From: a bacterium
GTDB taxonomy: Bacteria > Sysuimicrobiota > Sysuimicrobiia > Sysuimicrobiales > Kaftiobacteriaceae
Direction of reading: 5' to 3'
Length of the DNA stretch: 12,639 bases
Assembly: GCA_044868695.1 (NCBI GenBank)
Contig: JBIOWP010000109.1
Coordinates: 1 to 12,639, forward strand
A program made the position numbers and the translations under genes. Shown one piece after another: positions 1 through 12,639 of this stretch. Within the stretch, counting starts at the first letter, position 1, and every line of letters starts with the position of its first letter. The notes beneath the pieces are model-generated. The model searched no databases, was not told the origin of the DNA, and saw only the letters and a program-made list of their open reading frames with translations.

Positions 1-219
1 CGTTTCTTCATGAAAGGGTCGGCCCTCCAGGGCACGCTGCATGGCGGCGCCCTCGGTCTCGAAACGCACATCGAAGTTGAGGCCGACGAGCCGCCGGAGA
101 AGATCCGGCACCTGGTCAAAATGGGGGAGCAGATGTGCTTCACGCTCCAGTCGTTGATCAACCCGGTTCCCGTCACGACGACCGCGGCCCTCAACGGGGA
201 ACCCCTGGCCTTGGAGTAA
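1..219 (+). CDS. OsmC/Ohr-like protein, C-terminal part (5' truncated by window)
   Basis: Frame is open from base 1. The pattern 'IEVEADEPPEKIRHLVKMGEQMCFTLQSLINPVPV' resembles the OsmC C-terminal strand-helix with the conserved second Cys followed by 'SL..P'. Confidence 0.65.
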   Translation, partial: RFFMKGSALQGTLHGGALGLETHIEVEADEPPEKIRHLVKMGEQMCFTLQSLINPVPVTTTAALNGEPLALE

Positions 220-265
220 CGGGTCGCGCGGTGTGAGACGCGCATGAAAAGGACGGTGGGCACTA

Positions 266-790
266 ATGCTCGACACGTTCAAAACGTTGGTCAAGAACCA
301 GTTCGACGCAGCGCTCTGCACGCTCAACACCTGCATTGATCGATGTCCTGAGACCGTCTGGAACGCGCGCGTCGTGAACTACCTGTTTTGCCAGGTCGCA
401 TTCCACACGTTGTTTTACGCGGACTTCTATCTCGGGCAGAATGAGGAGCCGTTCCGTCGCCAACCATTTCATCTCGCCAACGAGCGTTTATTCGGCGACT
501 ACGAAGAATTCGAGGACCGCGCGCCGGTGTCGCGCTACGATAAGCCGTCAATCACAGCATACCTCGAACACTGCCGACGCAAGGCATCCGACGTGGTCGC
601 GGCGGAGACTGCGGAGACGCTCGCGGCGCGGGCCGGGTTCGAGCGGCGGGCGTTCTCCCGCGCCGAGCTGTACGTCTACAACATCCGGCACATCCAGCAC
701 CATACGTCGCATCTGAGCCTGCGGCTCAGGCTCGACGCCAACCAGGCGATCCCCTGGATTGGATCCGGGTGGCGCGAGGTTGGGAGCTAG
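266..790 (+). CDS. DinB/YfiT-like four-helix-bundle protein
   Basis: 174 aa ORF with 'CPETVW', 'QVAFHTLFYAD' and C-terminal 'YNIRHIQHH' giving the His metal triad typical of DinB. Confidence 0.8.
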   Translation: MLDTFKTLVKNQFDAALCTLNTCIDRCPETVWNARVVNYLFCQVAFHTLFYADFYLGQNEEPFRRQPFHLANERLFGDYEEFEDRAPVSRYDKPSITAYLEHCRRKASDVVAAETAETLAARAGFERRAFSRAELYVYNIRHIQHHTSHLSLRLRLDANQAIPWIGSGWREVGS

Positions 791-802
791 GGGAGGCGGT
801 CG

Positions 803-1225
803 ATGACGCACGTACCCAGCGGGGCATCGGGAGCGTCCCAAATCTCCATCACGCCGATGCTCTCGGTGAGAAACGGCGCGCGAGCCATCGCCTTCTACAA
901 GGAGGCGTTTGGAGCGACCGAGTTGACACGTTTCGCGCGCCCCGACGGGGGAGTGGTTGCCGAGCTAACGATTGAAGGCGCGAAGATCGGAGTCGCCGAC
1001 GAGTCGCCCGAAGCTTTCAACTTTAGCCCGGAGTCGCTCGGTGGCACATCGGTGCGAATCAACCTGGTCGTCGCAGATCCCGACGCCGTGGCCAGCCGCG
1101 CCGTGGCCGCCGGCGCGCGGCTGCTCTTTCCGGTGGCCGACCAGGCTTACGGTTGGCGGCAGGGACGCGTGGTGGATCCGTTCGGACACCACTGGCTGAT
1201 CGGCAGGCCCCTGGAAAAGAGGTGA
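803..1225 (+). CDS. VOC/glyoxalase family protein (PhnB-like)
   Basis: 'ITPMLSVRNGARAIAFYKEAFGA', 'GGTSVRINLVVADPDA', 'YGWRQGRVVDPFGHHW'. GGAGG SD just upstream. Confidence 0.9.
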   Translation: MTHVPSGASGASQISITPMLSVRNGARAIAFYKEAFGATELTRFARPDGGVVAELTIEGAKIGVADESPEAFNFSPESLGGTSVRINLVVADPDAVASRAVAAGARLLFPVADQAYGWRQGRVVDPFGHHWLIGRPLEKR

Positions 1226-1230
1226 AGGCT

Positions 1231-1638
1231 ATGAAGGCACAACGAGTCGTCATCCTGCTGACCGCGATCAACCTTGTGCTCTTGCTGCTAACCGTGATGC
1301 AGGCGAGGTCTATGGCAGCGCAGAGCGTCACTCCGATCCTGCGTGCTGGCGCGCTCGAGTTAGTGGACGAGCACGGTGTGGTTCGCGCGCGACTCAACGT
1401 GAAAGGCGGTTCAAGCGGTCCAATTGAACTCGATCTGTTCGACAAAGACGGGATCATCCGCGTGAAGCTTGGCGCGGGCGAGGACGGCTCAGGATTGGTG
1501 CTTTCTGAGGGAGGAACGGACGCCTCCCGCGGTTATGTACAAATCATTGCCAGGCAGACGGGTACTGCCGCGCAGCCGGCCACGACCGGCATCACATTGA
1601 GGGGTGCAGACGGCCGGCAGCGCGTGATCAGGCCCTGA
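1231..1638 (+). CDS. Hypothetical membrane-anchored/secreted beta-rich protein
   Basis: ATG at 1231 follows the VOC stop, with GAGGTG SD. Hydrophobic N-terminus, then repeated 'L.L.D..G..R..L' units (LELVDEHGVVRARL, LDLFDKDGIIRVKL, ITLRGADGRQRVI). Confidence 0.7.
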   Translation: MKAQRVVILLTAINLVLLLLTVMQARSMAAQSVTPILRAGALELVDEHGVVRARLNVKGGSSGPIELDLFDKDGIIRVKLGAGEDGSGLVLSEGGTDASRGYVQIIARQTGTAAQPATTGITLRGADGRQRVIRP

Positions 1639-1672
1639 CCCGTCCGGCATCTCACGATCGTCCCTCGGCATC

Positions 1673-1738
1673 CTTTATGGAATCTTCACAGGACGTTTAA
1701 AGGTTCATTATCCCTCCCCAACAATCGTCTGCTAGGTT
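1673..1738 (+). promoter_or_regulatory. Putative promoter with 11-bp-periodic direct repeats (OmpR/PhoB-type box) and extended -10
   Basis: CTTTAT(1673), CTTCAC(1684), GTTTAA(1695), CATTAT(1706) at exact 11-bp spacing, in an AT-rich intergenic region. TG-C-TAGGTT at 1730-1738. Confidence 0.4.
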
Positions 1739-1794
1739 CACTTCGGGATCCACAGGTGGGCCCGGCGGAGCGTGGGGTCACAAGGAGGGATACG

Positions 1795-2028
1795 ATGAGG
1801 GATCTCAGGGTGCTTGTGGGAGTTTCTTTGACCGTCGTTTTGCTGAGCGCAGTCGCCGCCCCTGCATTCGCCAGCAACGTCTGCCCAGTCATAGGGGGGC
1901 CAAACAACCCCGAAATCAAGTCCACTCCGGCAGAGGTACCTGACAAGGCAGGGAACCCTGCCCACGGGACTCAGGACGCCGATGGGACCCCGGTAAGTCC
2001 GCAGCCGGGCGACGCCTTCTGGAACTGA
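1795..2028 (+). CDS. Small secreted protein (77 aa, Sec signal peptide)
   Basis: Strong AGGAGG SD at 1783-1788. Signal peptide MRDLRVLVGVSLTVVLLSAVAAPAFA with an A-F-A cleavage motif. Followed by a terminator. Confidence 0.75.
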   Translation: MRDLRVLVGVSLTVVLLSAVAAPAFASNVCPVIGGPNNPEIKSTPAEVPDKAGNPAHGTQDADGTPVSPQPGDAFWN

Positions 2029-2065
2029 TTTACATCCCCACCGCGCCCGAGCTCATCTAGATCCC

Positions 2066-2105
2066 CCACAGCGCGGCCGGTCGGCTGCGCTGTGGCATTT
2101 TCATT
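2066..2105 (+). terminator. Intrinsic terminator
   Basis: CCACAGCGCGGCC / GGCTGCGCTGTGG 13-bp stem (one G-U) with a GGTC loop, followed by CATTTTCATT. Confidence 0.75.
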
Positions 2106-2231
2106 GACCCTTTGTGTCCGCGCGCCCGCGGCCATTTTCATGTGTGCGTGAGTGTTCGGTAGGATTGCGAGGTCCGCCGATGAAGAAACGAACTCGACGC
2201 AGTGTGAAGGCCTGACACTCTGGAGGCGTTA

Positions 2232-2816
2232 ATGCGACTGGCGGTACGGCCTCTGACGAGGGATCGGTGGGGGGATCTGGTCGACCTCTTCAGCCGGCCC
2301 GGAGGGTCAATCGTCCGGGGCTGCTGGTGTATGTACTACCGGAAGGTGGGGGCACGTGCCGATGGTCCTGCCGGCGAGGCCAACAAGCGGGCCATGAAGT
2401 CGCTCGTGGACCGCGGGACGGTGCCGGGGCTCATTGCCTACAGAGACCGACGGCCTGTCGGCTGGATCTCCCTGGGTCCCCGCGAGGACTACCCGCGGCT
2501 GGAGCGCTCCCGGGTAATGAAGCGCGTCGACGAGAAGCCGGTCTGGTCGATCGTGTGTTTCTTCGTCGATTCGCAAGAACGGGGTCAGGGCATCACGAGA
2601 GCGTTGCTGCGGGGGGCGATCGCCTACGCCCGGTCGAAGGGCGCCACGCTGCTCGAGGCGTATCCCATCGACAAGAAGGCGCGGAGCCACCCAGACTTCA
2701 TGTGGTTCGGAGCCAAGCACCTATTCGACCGGGCGGGCTTCAGGGAGGTCGCCCGCCGAAAGGAAACTCGGCCGGTCGTCCGCCGCGGCCTGCGCCCACA
2801 GAGGGCTCCCAGATAG
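2232..2816 (+). CDS. GNAT family N-acetyltransferase
   Basis: 'CWCMYYR', 'VWSIVCFFVDSQERGQGITRALLRGA' (motif A, R-x-x-G-x-T), 'LEAYP', 'FDRAGF'. GGAGG SD. Confidence 0.9.
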   Translation: MRLAVRPLTRDRWGDLVDLFSRPGGSIVRGCWCMYYRKVGARADGPAGEANKRAMKSLVDRGTVPGLIAYRDRRPVGWISLGPREDYPRLERSRVMKRVDEKPVWSIVCFFVDSQERGQGITRALLRGAIAYARSKGATLLEAYPIDKKARSHPDFMWFGAKHLFDRAGFREVARRKETRPVVRRGLRPQRAPR

Positions 2817-2818
2817 CG

Positions 2819-3289
2819 ATGCAGCTCCTGCTGAAGAATCTGGTCTTCACCTTGCTCATCCCGGGGTCGGTTGCCGTCTACCTCCCGCTGCTGATCGTGC
2901 GGCGCACCGCTGCGCTCTGGCGGATCGATATCGCCTCTGTGGTGGGGGTGCTGCTGGTCATGCTCGGGGCAGGCCTGTACCTGTGGTGTCTGCGGGAATT
3001 CACCGTCACGGGCCGCGGTACGCCGGCACCCATCGACGCGCCGACCCGGCTGGTCATGGGCGGACCCTATCAGTACGTGCGCAACCCGATGTACGTGGCG
3101 CTCCTGGTGATGGTCGTTGGTTGGAGCGTGGCGTTCCTCGTTCCGCTGCTCCTCGTCTACGCCGCCATGATTGCCGCGGCATTCCATCTCTTCGTGATCT
3201 TCTACGAGGAGCCGACCCTGCGCGGGCAGTTCGGCGAAGACTACGAGCAGTACACGAACCTGGTGAACCGATGGGTGCCCTGGCCGTGA
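2819..3289 (+). CDS. Isoprenylcysteine carboxylmethyltransferase (ICMT/Ste14/PEMT)-family membrane methyltransferase
   Basis: 'GRGTPAPIDAPTRLVMGGPYQYVRNPMY', 'YEEPTLRGQFGEDYEQY...VNRW'. ATG 2 nt after the GNAT stop. Confidence 0.88.
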   Translation: MQLLLKNLVFTLLIPGSVAVYLPLLIVRRTAALWRIDIASVVGVLLVMLGAGLYLWCLREFTVTGRGTPAPIDAPTRLVMGGPYQYVRNPMYVALLVMVVGWSVAFLVPLLLVYAAMIAAAFHLFVIFYEEPTLRGQFGEDYEQYTNLVNRWVPWP

Positions 3290-3753
3290 TGGCAGAGCAG
3301 CAACCACCTTCCCCGCGATTCTACCCGCCGATTCTCTTGTTGTTCTCGATCATCCTGATGGTTGGGCTGCACTATGCGGTTCCGGTCGCGCGATGGCTGT
3401 CATGGCCGTGGCGGGCGTCTGGTGCGGTGCCTGTGGCGGCAGGTCTGCTCCTGGGCCTGGCGGCAAGCAGGCACTTCACGCGACACGACACGACCATTGT
3501 CCCGTTTGAGCAATCGAGCGAACTGATCACCGAGGGGCCATACCGGTACACCAGGAATCCCCTCTATCTCTCGATGACCCTCATGCTGATCGGACTCTGG
3601 GTCTTCCTGGGAAGCCTGTCCCCGGCGGTGGTCGTCCCGCTGTTCGTGTGGTGGATCGCGACCCGGTTCGTCGCGAAAGAAGAGCGTCACCTCGAAGCCC
3701 AGTTTGGCCCGGCCTACCGAGCGTACAGAGCGAAGGTCCGCCGATGGTTCTAG
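3289..3753 (+). CDS. Second ICMT/Ste14/PEMT-family membrane methyltransferase
   Basis: 'LITEGPYRYTRNPLYL', 'EERHLEAQFGPAYRAYRAKVRRW'. TGATG stop/start overlap with the upstream paralog. Confidence 0.88.
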   Translation: MAEQQPPSPRFYPPILLLFSIILMVGLHYAVPVARWLSWPWRASGAVPVAAGLLLGLAASRHFTRHDTTIVPFEQSSELITEGPYRYTRNPLYLSMTLMLIGLWVFLGSLSPAVVVPLFVWWIATRFVAKEERHLEAQFGPAYRAYRAKVRRWF

Positions 3754-3799
3754 CCCCCGCCGTCAAGGTGTCCGTGACGGCGGATCGGAGGTGGTAGGA

Positions 3800-4192
3800 A
3801 TGATTCGCGGGGTCCACGCCATGTTCTATACACCCGCTGCCGAGGAGCTGCGGGCGTTTCTTCGTGACAAGCTGCGCTTTCCGTTCACCGACACGGGCGG
3901 AGGCTGGCTCATTTTCGACGCTCCGGCGGGGGAGGTCGGGGTCCATCCCCATGACCGGAAGGGTCACGGCATCTCGTTCTATTGTGACGACCTCCTCAAA
4001 ACCATGGAAGAGTTGAAGCGCCGCGGCGTGGAGTTCACCACGGGCATCATCGAGGAGGCTTGGGGATCGGTGGCCCGGTTCCGGATACCCGGCGGAGACG
4101 ATGTTGACCTCTATCAGCCCAAATACGTCAAACGACATTCTCGCGGCCGCCGGACGACCCGTCCTGCGGGCCGGAAGCGCACAAGGAGGTAA
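3800..4192 (+). CDS. VOC family (extradiol dioxygenase/bleomycin-resistance-like) protein with Arg-rich tail
   Basis: '[10 protein letters not shown]', 'DTGGGWLIF', '[20 protein letters not shown]', '[12 protein letters not shown]...LYQPKY'. Confidence 0.85.
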
Positions 4193-4194
4193 GG

Positions 4195-4842
4195 ATGAAG
4201 ATCGGAGTTTTGGGGACCGGCATGGTTGGCACCACTATCGGGACAAAGCTCGTGCAGCTAGGCCATGACGTCATGATGGGGTCTCGCTCGAAAACGAATG
4301 AGAAGGCCGCAGCGTGGGTGAAGGCGAGCGGTCCCAGGGCGTCACAAGGCACCTTTGCGGACGCGACCAGGTTTGGCGAGATTCTCTTCAACTGTACGCA
4401 CGGCATGGCCTCGCTGGAGGCTCTGAAGATGGCGGGCGCGGAGAATCTGAGAGGCAAGATCCTACTCGACCTCTCCAATCCCCTGGACTTCTCGAAGGGC
4501 ATGCCTCCGACCCTGTCGGTATGCAACACCGATTCACTCGCCGAACAGATCCAGCGCATGTTCCCCGACGCGAAGGTGGTCAAGACGCTCAATACGATGA
4601 ACTGCAAGCTGATGGTGAATCCCTCCCTGGTCCCTGGCGATCATGACGTCTTCGTGAGTGGAAATGACAAGACCGCCAAAGCGAAAGTCAGCGAGATCCT
4701 GAAGAGCTGGTTCGGCTGGAAGACGGTCATCGACCTGGGCGATATCTCGACAGCCCGAGGCGTGGAGCAGCTACTGCCACTCTGGCTGCGCCTGCTGGGC
4801 AATTTCGGGACGGCGAACTTCAATATCAAGATCGTGAAATGA
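4195..4842 (+). CDS. NADP oxidoreductase, F420H2:NADP+ oxidoreductase (FNO)-like family
   Basis: Rossmann '[12 protein letters not shown]', 'GSR' NADP motif, '[10 protein letters not shown]', 'SLAEQIQ...AKVVKTLN', 'IDLGDI..AR'. AGGAGGT SD. Confidence 0.85.
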
Positions 4843-5318
4843 GAGCGGCGACGGTCCTCTGGCGGCTGCACCGGTGGGCATACCGGATCAGCGCCGGACG
4901 AGTGGGCGGCCGGCTGCTGGGTGTGCCCGTGCTTTTGCTCACCACCACCGGCCGGCGCACCGGTCGGCTGCACACAACAGCGCTCACCCATCTCGTGGAA
5001 GGCCGGAACGTGGTCGTCATTGCCTCTAACGGCGGGGCGCCGAACCACCCGGCATGGCTGCTCAACCTGCGGGCGCGCCCAGAGGCAGAAATCCAGGTTG
5101 GAGGGCAACGCCGGCGCGTGCGTGCCCGAGAAGCCAACGGCGCCGAACGCGAGCGGTTCTGGACCCGCGTCGTCCAGGCCATGCCGCGATACGCCGACTA
5201 CAAAGCGCGTACGTCCCGCCGGATTCCTGTCGTGGTCCTCGAGCCCATCGACAGGCTGCCGGGAGAGACTCCTGACCACCGCGCGCACCCATCAGGTATC
5301 ATGAAGAGCAAGGAGTAG
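4839..5318 (+). CDS. Deazaflavin (F420)-dependent nitroreductase/oxidoreductase, Ddn/FDOR-A family
   Basis: '[13 protein letters not shown]', '[23 protein letters not shown]', '[19 protein letters not shown]'. ATGA overlap with the upstream gene. Confidence 0.92.
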
Positions 5319-5332
5319 AGGAGGAGGACCAC

Positions 5333-5875
5333 ATGCGCAAGGAAGTTGCGACCCTGGCCGGAGGGTGCTTCTGGTGCCTGGAAGCCGTGTTCGACGATCT
5401 GGAGGGTGTGGAAGACGTCGTCTCAGGATACTCCGGCGGCGACGTTCCCAACCCCAGCTATAAGCACGTCTGCACCGGGGAGACGGGCCATGCCGAGGTC
5501 GTGCAAGTCGCGTTCAACCCGGACGTGCTCTCCTACCAGGATCTGCTGAAGGTGTTCTTTGCCATTCACGACCCCACAACCCTCAACCGCCAGGGCGGTG
5601 ACGTGGGGACGCAGTACCGCTCGGCCATCTTCACGCACAGCGAAGAGCAGGAGAAAGTCGCGGAGCAGGTCATCACGGAGCTCAACGACGCCGGCATCTG
5701 GGATGAGCCGATCGTCACCGAGATCGTCCCGCTTGGGGCATTCTATCCGGCCGAGGACTACCATCAGGAGTACTTCCGGCGGAATCCCAATCAGGGATAC
5801 TGCCGCGTCGTCGTTGCGCCGAAGGTGGCCAAGTTCCGCAAGCAGTTTCTGGACCGGCTGAAGAAGGCCGGCTGA
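5333..5875 (+). CDS. msrA: Peptide-methionine (S)-S-oxide reductase
   Basis: Catalytic 'GGCFWC', '[14 protein letters not shown]', '[22 protein letters not shown]', '[11 protein letters not shown]', 'GYC'. GGAGGAGG SD. Confidence 0.98.
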
Positions 5876-5877
5876 GG

Positions 5878-6360
5878 GTGGCCGTGGAGCCGAAGGCCGT
5901 TCAGGATTTCTATCCCGAGGATTTGAACCGGTGTTACGGGTGCGGTCAGAAGAATGAGCACGGCCTGCGTCTGAGGACGCTGGTGGTCGGTGAGGAGACT
6001 GTGGCCACCTTCATGCCCCAGCCCTATCACACGGCGATTCAGGGGTACGTCTATGGAGGGCTGATCGCGTCGCTCATCGATTGCCACGGCACGGGAACGG
6101 CCGCCGCCGCGGCATACCGCGCCGCCGGTCGCGCGGTGGGGTCAGACCCGCCATTTCGCTTTGTGACTGCGTCGCTGCACGTCAATTACGAGAAACCCAC
6201 ACCGATCGCCGTTCCCCTGGAGCTCCGGGGTCGGGCGAAAGAGGTCAAAGGGCGGAAAGTGGTCGTGGAGGTCACGCTGTCCGCCCGCGGCCAGGTCTGC
6301 GCCCGGGGTGAGGTGGTGGCGGTGCAGCTCCCCGCAGAGATGGCGGGCCCCCGTGGATAG
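5878..6360 (+). CDS. PaaI/hotdog-fold thioesterase
   Basis: 'CYGCG..NEHGL', 'VYGGLIASLIDCH', 'VTASLHVNYEKPTP'. GTG start 2 nt after the msrA stop. Confidence 0.88.
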   Translation: MAVEPKAVQDFYPEDLNRCYGCGQKNEHGLRLRTLVVGEETVATFMPQPYHTAIQGYVYGGLIASLIDCHGTGTAAAAAYRAAGRAVGSDPPFRFVTASLHVNYEKPTPIAVPLELRGRAKEVKGRKVVVEVTLSARGQVCARGEVVAVQLPAEMAGPRG

Positions 6361-6416
6361 CCGGCGACTGATCCCCAATCGGCGCGGGTACGCTTCATCC
6401 AGGACTGACTCCTGGA

Positions 6417-8387
6417 GTGCTCATGAACGGCTCAACCGCGTCGGCCATCGGCCTCATCCTCGTCCCCGGGATTTTCGCATGGTGGAGCGGGTGGCGTCTT
6501 ACCCGCCTCGCTGAGCATCCTGCGCTCTCCGAGCGCCTCCAGGCGCGAAACCAGCAGGTCACGCAGCTCACGATCGGCGCGATCATTATCCTGCTGACCT
6601 TTGTCCGGCATCACGCGGGCTGGGCAGTGCCCGGGCTCTTCCTTGCCGTGACCATCGCCAGCTTTCCCGCGCGCCGGCGGCTGCTGGATGAACGCTGGAG
6701 TCTCGGGCAGTACCTGCTCTTCCACCTGCGGCTGTGGGCGGGATGGTTCGGCCTCTGGCTAGTGGTGATGATCGCCCCGTTCGTCGTGGGCGCCGGCGCC
6801 GCGGCGCGGTGGCAGATCGCGGCCGGACTCGCGGTGGTGCTGGTGGCGTGGAACTTCGCCTATTCGAGAGTGTTCGTGCGTCTGGTCGGCGCCCGCCCCC
6901 TCCCGCTGCCCCCGCGTTTTGCCGGGATCGCGGCACAGACAAAGATCCGGACGCCGCGTTTCTTCCGGTTCGGCTCGGACGACGGCCGGGTGGTCAATGC
7001 GTTCGCGCTGCCCTCCGTGCTCACGCCCGGGGTCGCGTTCACCGCGGCCCTGATGCAGGCGCTCGACGCCGACGAGCAGGCCGCCGTCTTCGCGCACGAG
7101 GTCGCCCATCTCGAGTACTTTAACCGCCGCCGGCTCATTGCCGGCAACATGGTTCTCTCGGTGTTCATCGTGCTGGCGACGGCGGGCGCCGCCGTGGTGC
7201 CGGAAGCGTATTGGGGGTTCCTCGCCGTATGGCCGGTCGTCATGATGATCGCGCTGACGTCCGCCCTGGCCCGCCGGAAGGTCCACGAAGAGGAGAGCGA
7301 CCGCCGCGCCGTGGCGCTGTGCGGCGATCCGGAGGCTCTGGTGCGCGCGCTCGTGAAGATTACGACCCTGGCGCGCATGCCGCGGCGGTGGGGTCTCGCC
7401 TTTGAGCGCGGCGCCACCCATCCCAGCTTGGCCCGCCGGATTCAGGTGATCCGCAGCTTCTCCGGGACCGCGACGGTCCGGCCGCTGTCACAAGTGGTCT
7501 CGACGAAGACGCCCGGGATGTACGTGATCCTGGAGGCAGACCACGCCGTCTGGCTGGAGGGGGTGCCTGACGGCACGCCGCCCGAGGCCGCGGCACTGCG
7601 CCGTGGGGCGGTCAGCTCCCGGTCCCTGCGCTACGATGGGCTGCTCGAGCTGCGGCTCCGGGCCGGGATGACCGGCACGCCGGTGCTCACGGCCACGGAC
7701 CTGGGCGGCAAATCCTGGTCCGTGCCGGTGCGGGAGGACGACGTCGCGGCCGTGCAGGCCGCCCTCGACGTCGTCGACATTCGGTTCGGCCGTCCGCCGG
7801 TGGCATCCACGACCTACGCGCTGCTCGGACGGATCCTGTCGGTTCTCCTCATGCTGCTGGATCTTGTGTCGGGCGCGCGGCTTACCCCTCTGGTGACGGG
7901 GGCACTGGGATTCTGGCGTCCCGGCCGGGCCACCCTGGCCGCATCTTCGGCAGCGGCTGTCGGCACCGTGGTCGCGGCGATCACCATGCTAGGCCCCGTG
8001 CTGGGGATGCCCGGTGCCACGGCCTGGAGCTGGCGCCATACGGGATTCAATGCCGGCCTGCTCGTGGTCGCAGGGATGAGCGCCTGGCTCGCATTCCGCC
8101 GCGCCCCAGGGCTCCCCGAACGCCGGATCGATATCTTCCTGCCTTCCGCCGTGCTGGCGGCGCTAACAGTGGGCATGTGGACCCTGCTGGCCGTGAACAT
8201 ATCCACACCCTATGGCCTTGCGCTCGTGACGAATATGGTGAAAGCGGCGGCCGACACATGGCTGGCGCCCCTCGCGCTCGCCGTCATACTGCTGACGGCG
8301 CGCCATCGCGTCGCCCGCCTGGGTGGTGTGGTGATGCTTGCGGTCAGCGTGCTGCTCTATGCGTTTGGGTGGGCCGGACTGCAGTAG
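6417..8387 (+). CDS. M48 (HtpX/Ste24-like) zinc metallopeptidase with extended multi-TM C-terminus
   Basis: 'VNAFA', 'AVFAHEVAH' (HExxH), 'EEESDRRA' (third-ligand E), 'ATHPSLARRI', many hydrophobic segments. The start could be GTG 6417 or ATG 6423; GGAG precedes the ATG. Confidence 0.85.
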   Translation: MLMNGSTASAIGLILVPGIFAWWSGWRLTRLAEHPALSERLQARNQQVTQLTIGAIIILLTFVRHHAGWAVPGLFLAVTIASFPARRRLLDERWSLGQYLLFHLRLWAGWFGLWLVVMIAPFVVGAGAAARWQIAAGLAVVLVAWNFAYSRVFVRLVGARPLPLPPRFAGIAAQTKIRTPRFFRFGSDDGRVVNAFALPSVLTPGVAFTAALMQALDADEQAAVFAHEVAHLEYFNRRRLIAGNMVLSVFIVLATAGAAVVPEAYWGFLAVWPVVMMIALTSALARRKVHEEESDRRAVALCGDPEALVRALVKITTLARMPRRWGLAFERGATHPSLARRIQVIRSFSGTATVRPLSQVVSTKTPGMYVILEADHAVWLEGVPDGTPPEAAALRRGAVSSRSLRYDGLLELRLRAGMTGTPVLTATDLGGKSWSVPVREDDVAAVQAALDVVDIRFGRPPVASTTYALLGRILSVLLMLLDLVSGARLTPLVTGALGFWRPGRATLAASSAAAVGTVVAAITMLGPVLGMPGATAWSWRHTGFNAGLLVVAGMSAWLAFRRAPGLPERRIDIFLPSAVLAALTVGMWTLLAVNISTPYGLALVTNMVKAAADTWLAPLALAVILLTARHRVARLGGVVMLAVSVLLYAFGWAGLQ

Positions 8388-8440
8388 TGGTTCAATTTAA
8401 GATACCCACTACCCTCTTCTAGGTAGTGGGTCGTCTGAAT
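8383..8440. repeat. Cluster of three alternating copies of a GTAGTGG-core motif
   Basis: AGTAGTGGTTCA (8383-8394, +), ATACCCACTACC (8402-8413, -), GGTAGTGGGTCGTCTGAA (8422-8439, +). 8404-8413 and 8422-8431 form a perfect 10-bp inverted repeat. Confidence 0.75.
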
Positions 8441-9000
8441 GGACGGGCGGCTGGCTGCTCGGGGGCGGTCCCTCGCGTCGAGTCGGGCGGCTTCCGATTG
8501 GATGTGCAGGCCTCACGCTCCCTGGTGCGCTCGCCTGCCAAGATGCGACGGAACACGACGGCCTCTGCTGCTTTCCCCGCGACATACTTCGGTCGATCCC
8601 TACCTCACGGCCTGCCAGTGGGTGGTTGCCGCCCTCCAATCTCCGCTCGGGGCCGCCCCACTCGCCCGCCGCCCGGCCCGCTGGGCCGTCCCGAGCGTCT
8701 GCGAGGCACCTCCCGTGGGGCGGGTGGAAGGCTGCGGAGCGACGTGGCGGCGAGCTGTCGCCGCCGTGCGCGAGGGCCGCGTCGCGCAGGGCGGGGCCCC
8801 GCACGCAGCGTCACGCAGGGAGCACGATGCAGGATGGAGCGCGCGGTAGTGCGGGGGGGCCGGAGCAGCGTGCCCGGCCGTCGTGCCGGCCGGGTGAGCC
8901 CAGCCGATCGTGGCGGGCGAGCCCGAGCGCTACGCCCGGCGGGTGAGCCGCCCCGAGAGCGGAGCGGCCTTCCACTAGCCCAACAGATGACGGATGACAG

Positions 9001-9019
9001 TCCAGACTGAACCACTACT
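9001..9019 (-). repeat. Fourth copy of the GTAGTGG-core motif (inverted)
   Basis: TCCAGACTGAACCACTACT. 9008-9019 is the exact reverse complement of 8383-8394 (12/12). The reverse complement GTAGTGGTTCAGTCTGGA also aligns to GTAGTGGGTC-GTCTGAA at 8423. Confidence 0.75.
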
Positions 9020-9033
9020 CGACTGCCGGGTCC

Positions 9034-9061
9034 TTGACAACACTCGGGTCGGGTTTATAAT
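9034..9061 (+). promoter_or_regulatory. Consensus sigma70/SigA promoter (rRNA-type)
   Basis: TTGACA (9034-9039) - 16 bp - TATAAT (9056-9061). Perfect hexamers with the 16-bp spacer typical of rrn promoters. Confidence 0.92.
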
Positions 9062-9146
9062 GAGTGATGGTCTGTTAGACACGGGAGGGAACACGGATCT
9101 TCGGTACCTCTAGCGGCTAACTGAATACGTAGTGAAGATGAGCACC

Positions 9147-9175
9147 GAGGGGATGGCTGCTCATCCCCTCTTTTT
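9147..9175 (+). terminator. Intrinsic terminator-like hairpin in the 23S leader
   Basis: GAGGGGATG (9147-9155) / CATCCCCTC (9162-9170) perfect 9-bp stem, 6-nt loop, followed by TTTTT. Confidence 0.7.
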
Positions 9176-9200
9176 GTGTCTTGCAGATCTTCCACTGAAC

Positions 9201-9239
9201 TGTCCGGATCCCCCGGACATGCACCTTGACAACCGCAGA
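9201..9239 (+). promoter_or_regulatory. boxB-like hairpin plus boxA-like / processing-stalk sequence
   Basis: TGTCCGG/CCGGACA hairpin (9201-9219) directly followed by TGCACCTTGACAAC, resembling rrn boxA (TGCTCTTTAACAA). Confidence 0.55.
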
Positions 9240-9365
9240 GAGCCGGATCTCCGACGCTCCCGAGGCGTCCGAGATCATACCCCATCGCCGGATGGGGCCC
9301 GTCGTGCCTGGGTGTGCAGGCAGGAGGGGGCAATGCAGGCTCTAGACAGCTACTCCTAAAGTGGG

Positions 9366-11447
<2,082 letters not shown>

Positions 11448-12151
11448 AAGGACACCTTGCCCGTCGCGGGAGCGATCCCGCGAGCAAACCCGGCTCATAT
11501 CGGTGGAGCCCCGATGACCCAAATGGGTCAGGGTAATACCGAGGGAAGCTGCGGTAGAATCCTACCGTTAGCCCCGTAACGACTTCGGGACGGCAGTCCC
11601 GGGGCGGTGCCTTCTGGTGGTGACACCAAATCTACGGGCACCGCAATACGCCGGTATCTCGACAGGGGGAGCCTTAGGATGGATCTCGGAGCGTACCTCT
11701 CAGGCTACGCTGACGGCGAAGGATGCTTTTGCGTAACGTTCAATCGAAGCGCGCGGCATGCCTTCGGCTGGGATGTTCGGCCCAGTTTCTCCGTCAGCCA
11801 GAATCGCGAGCGCGCGGAGATTCTTGAGTTGTTCCAGACGAGGTTTGGGTGCGGAACCATCCGCCCCGATCGTTCCGATCGGACACTCAAGTACGAAGTG
11901 CGCAGCGTGCCGGAGCTGGTGGAAAGAGTCATCCCGCACTTCCGGTGTTACCCGATGCTGTCCGCCAAGAGCCGTGATTTCGAAATCTTCGCAGGTATCT
12001 GCGAGGAGATAAATCGCGGCGAGCACCTGACGGACGCAGGATTCAACCGGATTGCCGCGATGGCGGCCGAGATCAATCCGACAGGCAAGAAAAAATACCC
12101 TCGAATCGAGATAAAGGTATAGTCTACGCCCCTGGCGACAGGGAGAGCGTG
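11448..12151 (+). mobile_element. Group I intron (IA-like) at 23S position L1951, carrying a homing endonuclease gene
   Basis: Exon junction GTCGGGT|AAGTTCCGACC is interrupted: 5' exon ends in U, intron ends in G. P1 CGGGU/GCCCG with U-G at the splice site; P2 TCGCGGGA-GCGA-TCCCGCGA; P3 CCGGC(11490)/GCCGG(11650); P4 TCGGT(11500)/ACCGA(11538); P7 GACT(11581)/AGTC(12121); P7.1 and P7.2 hairpins; P8 TATCTCGA/TCGAGATA; P9 CCCTG-GCGA-CAGGG. Confidence 0.95.
11679..12122 (+). CDS. Single-motif LAGLIDADG homing endonuclease (147 aa)
   Basis: 'YLSGYADGEGCF' LAGLIDADG helix, 'PSFSVSQ', 'FGCGTI', 'VIPHF..YPMLSAKSRDF'. ATG 11679 preceded by GGGGGAG. Lies in the P8 loop. Confidence 0.95.
   Translation: MDLGAYLSGYADGEGCFCVTFNRSARHAFGWDVRPSFSVSQNRERAEILELFQTRFGCGTIRPDRSDRTLKYEVRSVPELVERVIPHFRCYPMLSAKSRDFEIFAGICEEINRGEHLTDAGFNRIAAMAAEINPTGKKKYPRIEIKV

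Positions 12152-12639
<488 letters not shown>

Follow-up and report, generated by a model that had tools for sequence, protein, structure and literature searches.

The leader-peptide attenuators of the trp, his, leu, thr, pheA and ilv operons (Rfam RF00513, RF00514, RF00512 and RF00506) terminate transcription by a ribosome-mediated mechanism. A related idea was reportedly put forward for Escherichia coli ampC by Jaurin and co-workers in 1981, who are said to have described a ribosome-binding site and a minimal open reading frame (ORF) before a terminator and to have proposed growth-rate-dependent read-through. Here we examined a 12,639-nt stretch of DNA from a member of the Sysuimicrobiota (the window), in which a 23S ribosomal RNA (rRNA) gene is preceded by a leader of about 120 nt carrying a Shine-Dalgarno (SD) site, a seven-codon frame and a terminator-like hairpin. 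Judged from its sequence and that of its relatives, this leader may act on its rRNA gene as a transcription attenuator of the leader-peptide (ribosome-mediated) type, a reading to which we assign a probability of roughly 0.45. It resembles the amino acid leader attenuators in having a promoter-proximal SD site, a very short ORF, overlapping antiterminator and terminator structures, and a constant spacing between stop codon and switching strand. It differs from them in that its peptide lacks regulatory codons, it governs an rRNA gene instead of a biosynthetic operon, its antiterminator binds the 3′ arm of the terminator where theirs binds the 5′ arm, and the SD strand takes part in the stack. 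The ampC system is the closest in idea, since there, too, termination is proposed to read ribosome loading or concentration rather than one amino acid; unlike ampC, the leader described here targets an rRNA gene, its ORF of 5–11 codons ends in a conserved way, and it has both a closing helix and an antiterminator that covaries.

Two further systems concern rRNA genes themselves. Antitermination in rrn leaders (PMC10250234) involves boxB-boxA-boxC together with NusA/B/E/G, S4 and SuhB. The present element likewise lies in an rRNA leader and is followed by a boxA-like motif (9224–9237); but the known system prevents termination after boxA, whereas here the terminator precedes boxA. Because boxA is downstream, a Nus complex would form only on polymerases already past the terminator, and the boxA system should thus be unable to act on it. 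The unlinked arrangement of rRNA genes has been described (Brewer et al., bioRxiv 10.1101/705046), and the 16S and 23S genes are separate here as well, lying on the same strand 1.5–18 kb apart in relatives. Literature searches returned no description of a terminator, attenuator or upstream ORF in a 23S leader, and the main text of PMC11604079 mentions 23S, unlinked, rRNA operon and riboswitch 0 times each.

This conserved 5′ leader precedes unlinked 23S genes in two Sysuimicrobiota families. BLAST of positions 9020–9366 matched 17 of 60 relatives; 15 of the 17 matched loci lay directly 5′ of a 23S gene, and the remaining two were cut by contig ends. A covariance model (R1) built from 17 leaders was then run on 94 genomes of the phylum, whose families are numbered f1 to f7, and matched 36 of them: 10 of 21 in f1 plus the window's own genome, and 25 of 34 in f5. 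A single match occurred per genome, except for two in one genome (G005). R1 had no match in the draft genomes of f3 (0/23), f4 (0/12), or f2, f6 and f7 (0/1 each), an absence that is weak evidence because rRNA regions often remain unassembled in drafts. A pattern scan across the genomes of 185,579 species gave 107 loci, 23 of which had the promoter, the boxA-like motif and a 23S start, while the other 84 resembled chance matches. Among these 23 true matches are genomes named Armatimonadota, 'ANGP1', Candidatus Calidihabitans, Ca. Fervidifonticultor and Ca. Geohabitans; NCBI assigns Ca. Calidihabitans and Ca. Fervidifonticultor to Candidatus Sysuimicrobiota, formerly CSP1-3. A metagenome pattern scan added 44 loci, bringing the collection to 80 hits and 66 distinct sequences. 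The 5′ motif of 23S was found within 330 nt of 59 of the 66 leaders, and five of the remainder run off their contig.

The initial annotation, made from the sequence alone, had connected this leader with unlinked 16S and 23S genes, and the connection holds in the genomes examined. In four f1/f5 genomes with the element, the 16S gene lies on the same strand, 1.5, 6.2, 7.1 and 18.4 kb upstream of it. In linked operons of three genomes (families f4, f3 and f7), the 16S 3′ end is ~200–300 nt 5′ of 23S and the element is absent; two further genomes of families without the element gave no 23S match. The stand-alone 16S genes of four relatives carry boxA in a short leader; neither a comparable leader nor any terminator-like element precedes them, and ~100 nt past their 3′ end stands a canonical hairpin-plus-U terminator. 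Since 16S thus has its own promoter and terminator, 16S and 23S are separate transcription units in f1/f5, and the 16S terminators indicate that the phylum uses intrinsic hairpin-plus-U terminators. The promoters of these stand-alone 16S genes (L165–L168, in G010, G012, G045 and G039) have a TTGACA −35 element and a non-consensus −10, followed by a short leader with CCTTGAAAACTGCATAG. Their contrast with the 12/12 promoter and candidate attenuator on 23S may be meaningful in itself.

That 23S promoter is of the sigma-70 type and consists of TTGACA (9034–9039), a 16-nt spacer and TATAAT (9056–9061), on the plus strand like all features below unless stated otherwise. It scored 12/12 in a consensus scan and was the only promoter-like site in 8500–9500, where shuffled sequences are expected to give 0.1; upstream of the 66 distinct leaders, the promoter scored 12/12 in 59 and 11/12 in the remaining 7. 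Promoter spacing predicts a transcript start at ~9068–9069. The single site found by the scan agrees with the earlier remark that no convincing second promoter lies downstream. A candidate at the conserved TTGACA of 9226–9231, which falls within the boxA-like motif shared by all relatives, was rejected, as it has no −10 partner in any relative and the motif also occurs in linked 16S-23S spacers. Because no other promoter was seen in 8500–9500, transcription of 23S probably must pass the hairpin described next.

Hairpin T (9147–9170) begins ~80 nt downstream of the predicted transcript start. Its 5′ arm (9147–9156) and 3′ arm (9161–9170) form 10 pairs, 6 of them GC, around a loop of 4 (9157–9160), and TTTTTGTGTC follows, with the T-run at 9171–9175 and predicted release at ~9175–9179. 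T is terminator-like in the classical sense, a GC-rich hairpin directly before a U-run, and it was the single such site in 8500–9500 (shuffles expect 0.4), in agreement with the terminator annotated at 9147–9175 after the rRNA promoter. A hairpin of 6–10 bp (−9.2 to −19.4 kcal/mol) plus a T-run was present in 36/36 genome-derived leaders when counted by per-sequence folds; fixed alignment columns under-count T, one clade being one register off. The run is T5–T7 in 60 of the 66 leaders and interrupted in five (TTTTCAT in three, TCTTTTT and TTTCTTT), and in L161 it reads CCTCCTTATTTG. The bases of T are near-invariant among leaders, so covariation is uninformative for this hairpin. Downstream of it lie a boxB-like hairpin read from the sequence (GTCCGG-ATCCC-CCGGAC, 9202–9218), similar to one in the closest relatives only, and the boxA-like motif CCTTGACAACCGCA (9224–9237), which was kept in all 17 leaders of one comparison; CTTGAHAA occurs 3′ of 56 of the 66 leaders. 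The boxA-like CCTTGACAAC is also present in the 16S-23S spacers of linked families and in the 16S leaders of relatives. By resemblance, then, a boxA motif stands between promoter and rRNA gene as in rrn leaders; we take the names boxA and boxB on this resemblance, and the Nus-factor binding sites are presumptive.

The alternative to T is helix Pa, in which GATGAGCA (9137–9144) is exactly complementary to TGCTCATC (9158–9165). Pa and T are mutually exclusive because 9161–9165 is common to both. The initial annotation had noted this exclusive pairing and suggested a covariation check, which relatives now answer in its favor: 89% of cells are paired in the 66 sequences, pairing falls to 15–46% when the partner strand is slid, and 3 of the 8 pairs change on both sides (AU<->GC in 7 sequences, GC<->CG in 2 and AU<->CG in 1). 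One GC<->CG change falls in the T loop (L015) and therefore backs Pa specifically. A second pairing had been drawn between 9077–9089 and 9169–9181; it does pair across the T-run, but a better register combines 9083–9089:9166–9172 with 9077–9082:9176–9181 and 9069–9074:9184–9189. The first of these is helix H2, in which the SD site GGGAGGG (9083–9089) pairs with CCCUCUU (9166–9172); GGAG is invariant among leaders. Pa and H2 form one continuous stack at a three-way junction on a single 3′ strand (9158–9172), which pairs either with the antiterminator and SD strands or, in T, with the hairpin's own 5′ arm. An H-type pseudoknot of Pa with GAGGG:CCCUC was rejected by reasoning, as geometry forbids it with 0 bases between the 3′ strands and 2 nt between the 5′ strands.

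The two outer pairings form helix P1. Its 5′ strands (P1a, 9069–9074; P1b, 9077–9082) begin at the predicted first transcribed bases and have a pair probability of 0.88–1.0, and its 3′ strands (9176–9181 for P1b and 9184–9189 for P1a; 9176–9189 overall) exist only in read-through transcripts. Because this 3′ strand lies past the release point, P1 is a feature of the read-through RNA. The idea that a helix burying the U-tract is by itself the gate had to be abandoned, since part of its 3′ strand is past the release point and it could not gate termination alone. Cognate P1 flanks gave a mean of −13.5 kcal/mol and non-cognate flanks −10.6 kcal/mol (n = 65), with 0 of 5000 permutations as low, a test inflated by the kinship of the leaders; in the window's family P1 is a strong helix, at −13 to −23 kcal/mol, and some f5 leaders have a weak one. 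Between P1 and Pa, a hairpin domain (9091–9133; P2, 9091–9095:9128–9133; inner helix, 9100–9105:9120–9125) encloses the mini-ORF in constrained folds. The exact pairing of this domain depends on the clade, no single consensus fold fits the ORF-containing hairpin of all clades, and three alternatives are left for the window's family.

Forced folds of 9069–9189 gave −48.4 kcal/mol for the Pa+H2 state versus −49.2 kcal/mol for the T state; in the ensemble, Pa had a probability of 0.19 and T of 0.80, with P1 present in both. In nascent RNA, the T and Pa states differed by a mean of 1.2 kcal/mol over 64 leaders. The fold of 9068–9181 alone is unexceptional (z = −1.7; 14 of 200 shuffles fold equally well), and the case beyond chance rests on the conservation of promoter, helices, hairpin and T-run in 66 distinct leaders.

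The middle domain of the leader contains what the initial annotation had missed. Its two-state leader stands in so far as the folds are exclusive and Pa covaries, but the middle of the leader is an SD site with a 5–11-codon frame. In the window, the mini-ORF (9097–9120) reads AUC UUC GGU ACC UCU AGC GGC UAA, that is, 7 codons and a stop with a non-canonical AUC start. One of the 66 leaders contained N and was dropped, leaving 65 for ORF analysis. All 65 have GGAGG, 5–8 nt and a start codon (GUG in 45, AUC in 17, CUG in 2 and AUG in 1), and the frame is kept in all of them at lengths of 5 (15 leaders), 6 (19), 7 (22), 9 (1), 10 (2) and 11 (6) codons. UAA ends the frame in 60, UGA in 4 and UAG in 1, so that all five variants remain stops, and the stop lies 18–23 nt before the Pa 5′ strand in the 63 leaders with a parsed distance. 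A strict ORF rule was satisfied by 64 of 65 leaders versus 2.2% of dinucleotide shuffles, the single miss being a mis-located anchor. The peptides, such as IFGTSSG, VYQSG, VQDSTG and VLRSPTG, have only the terminal S/T-G in common. A short ORF with a ribosome-binding site, kept as a frame, is thus combined with a mutually exclusive antiterminator (Pa) and terminator (T), as in leader-peptide attenuators, although the window's family has AUC as its start.

The leader had not been recognized as a known riboswitch, and indeed it matches no Rfam family at the gathering score. Even at E <= 10, Rfam gave only two chance-level matches, both on the opposite strand, and no leader-peptide family (Trp, His, Leu or Thr). 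Nor does it have the conserved, otherwise unexplained aptamer core expected of a riboswitch: the SD site, ORF and stop account for the middle domain, whose helices vary between clades, unlike a fixed core.

On this basis, we propose how the leader could work as an attenuator. In a ribosome-free nascent leader, the P2 mini-ORF hairpin and Pa would form first; Pa probably acts as the antiterminator, because its 3′ strand emerges 3 nt before that of T. P2 and Pa would bring the SD strand beside CCCUC, the junction would zip, and polymerase would read through to boxA and 23S. Since P2 and Pa flank the SD strand at the junction, the full antiterminator (P2, Pa and H2) would need the SD and ORF strand to be free of ribosomes. 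After read-through, the 5′ end would pair with 9176–9189 (P1), and H2 and P1 together would hide the ribosome-binding site on the pre-rRNA. A ribosome on the SD site or mini-ORF would block P2 and H2 and leave T, as the more stable fold, to prevail, ending transcription near 9175–9179; free ribosomes would thereby hold 23S synthesis down. The fuller proposal, that ribosomes loading on the 7-codon frame of the nascent 23S leader decide termination 80 nt on and that this control arose with the separation of 16S and 23S, is a tentative one whose chances we put somewhat below even.

Several observations weigh against this proposal. The direction of control is its least certain step, as judged from constrained nascent-RNA folds in which a ribosome footprint was masked at the start or stop and the accessibility of the Pa and T 5′ strands was followed. 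Neither approach pointed consistently one way: under the stop-site mask 33 leaders shifted to T and 30 to Pa (mean +0.25 kcal/mol), and accessibility of the Pa 5′ strand changed little, from 0.51 to 0.55. The start codon is AUC in 17/17 leaders of the window's family, and AUC is a poor initiator in model bacteria, so translation is less certain there than in the GUG/AUG family. The final two codons, A[GC]C GGN, are the only conserved ones, and the peptide lacks the regulatory codons for an end product that leader peptides carry. Furthermore, the stop and the wobble position of GGN are situated in the loop of a small hairpin, so an RNA-only model would account for part of the apparent coding signal as well. 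Although 98% of H2 cells are paired, the helix is near-invariant, with no pair changed on both sides, so that covariation neither backs nor contradicts it; its strands could be complementary simply because a GGAGG site faces a CCUC-type terminator arm. The leaders are related and come from two families, and their counts consequently overstate independence; the metagenome search pattern itself fixed GATG and CATC, leaving the covarying Pa positions free. Finally, reads of 2 RNA runs (85% likeness), which held 6% of the sampled words, cover 9362 onward only and leave the leader (8900–9361) uncovered; reads on the conserved 23S body derive from other organisms and are neutral on termination at T.

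The uncertain direction leads to an unlikely but serious contender with the same parts and the opposite sign, in which a ribosome or 30S subunit on the leader promotes read-through and 23S rises with excess 30S. It could work by keeping the mini-ORF strand off the Pa 5′ strand, or by letting the anti-SD of 16S base-pair with T's SD-like 5′ arm (GAGGGG / GGAGGGG). The minimum-free-energy T state of the window pairs 9097–9103, around the start codon, with 9133–9139, overlapping the Pa 5′ strand, and a ribosome on the ORF would free the Pa 5′ strand from that pairing; the stop mask raised accessibility of this strand in 26 of 64 leaders and lowered it in 13. This pairing, however, is not kept in other clades (judged partly by eye), and the mean thermodynamic shift under the mask is near zero. 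By the footprint geometry of model ribosomes, a ribosome at the stop ends ~5–10 nt before Pa and ~15 nt before T, and would directly block neither. The anti-SD route finds a point in its favor in the SD-like character of both purine tracts and in the likeness of the shared 3′ strand to an anti-SD, and the opposite sign would give the correct response to a 16S/23S imbalance, balancing 23S with an unlinked 16S. An attenuator of this sign, of the growth-rate type, is said to have been proposed for E. coli ampC.

As to these tracts, both purine strands (9147–9156 and 9083–9089) are SD-like, and the pyrimidine strand that they share, AUCCCCUCUUU in 9161–9172, resembles the 16S 3′ end of relatives, AUCACCUCCUUU. 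Descent of the element from the 3′ end of 16S was considered and rejected: alignments with the last 150 nt and with the whole 16S of four relatives were no better than dinucleotide shuffles (z 0.8–2.3). It is a speculative idea that the 16S 3′ end might pair directly with the T 5′ arm.

We also judge it unlikely that the leader is an attenuator or tuner made of RNA only, with the mini-ORF untranslated at least in the AUC family; a bistable RNA would then shed a fixed or speed-dependent fraction of the transcripts that a promoter of maximal strength initiates, or sense a protein or small molecule at a conserved hairpin. The uniform AUC start of the window's family would fit, as would the two nearly isoenergetic states, the conserved AGCGGNUAA and CCG.AUACG in or beside small helices, and the 16S promoters of relatives, which are weaker by consensus and would make a tuner on 23S sensible. 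An untranslated strand does not explain, however, why the frame is kept over six ORF lengths with all 5 stop variants being stops, why the SD-to-start distance is 5–8 nt in 65/65, or why the stop-to-Pa distance stays steady despite changing ORF length; and no riboswitch or protein-binding leader of Rfam emerged even at E <= 10.

A third reading, that T does not terminate and the 120-nt domain is a 5′-end module of pre-23S (for protection, as an RNase III substrate or as a folding aid) whose T-run pairs with a G-rich strand, we consider decidedly improbable. It accounts well for P1, which needs sequence past the T-run and is under selection, and for the T-run being paired or bulged inside a long stem in both full-length folds. 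But a run kept for pairing only would be expected to vary or become C, whereas 60 of 66 leaders have an uninterrupted T5–T7 immediately after a GC-rich hairpin, resembling the 16S terminators of relatives, and the 5′ arm of T, which has no role in the alternative Pa+H2 fold, is yet conserved and complementary in 36/36 leaders. Least probable is that the terminated product, delimited by a consensus promoter and a terminator ~108 nt apart and containing a conserved ORF, functions in its own right, either as a small RNA or as a mini-mRNA encoding a 7-residue peptide, with read-through to 23S secondary, since the element occurs only directly 5′ of 23S with one match per genome, was not seen beside linked 16S and 23S genes, encodes a peptide that is variable beyond its last two residues, and has a P1 selected in read-through RNA with no other 23S promoter found.

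If the ribosome-mediated attenuator is correct, ribosome feedback would have a direct physical sensor in the mini-ORF of the 23S leader, assembled from textbook parts; to our knowledge, no direct sensor has ever been found for the "ribosome feedback" idea, which would thereby become directly testable with a few point mutations. The reach of leader-peptide attenuation would also widen from amino acid and resistance genes to the ribosome's own RNA, and the mechanism bears on two long-standing questions, how rRNA synthesis is matched to ribosome need and how subunits are balanced when 16S and 23S genes are separate. The element is in addition a marker for unlinked 23S genes in an uncultured phylum.

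The window spans an entire 12.6-kb contig, part of a metagenome-assembled genome of 2.59 Mb (162 contigs, 95% complete) that has no assembled 16S copy. Positions 1–8400 are protein-coding and encode a DinB-like protein, a glyoxalase, two PEMT-family methyltransferases, F420-dependent enzymes, MsrA, a thioesterase and an M48 peptidase; no transfer RNA or transfer-messenger RNA was detected in the window. The region directly 5′ of the 23S promoter (8426–9030) has a G+C content of 75%, compared with 59–70% in the rest of the window, and its long ORFs, 8426–9010 (+) and 8605–9015 (−), are without a Pfam match. In one relative (L168; G039:C2, ~64390–64670), the Rfam 16S match ends ~275 nt before GGATCACCTCCTTTCT, and this 16S therefore seems to carry an insertion near its 3′ end.

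The bacterial 23S gene itself (9366–12639; RF02541, 2130 bits, model positions 1–2466) is the sole Rfam match of the whole window at the gathering score and leaves the contig end. At 3274 nt for model positions 1–2466, it is ~800 nt longer than the Rfam model span, and Rfam gave no intron family in the 23S region. An ORF within it (11607–12122, +; 171 aa) encodes a LAGLIDADG homing endonuclease (PF00961, E 3.9e-22). Given this ORF and the ~800-nt excess, the 23S gene is likely interrupted by an intron with a homing-endonuclease gene.

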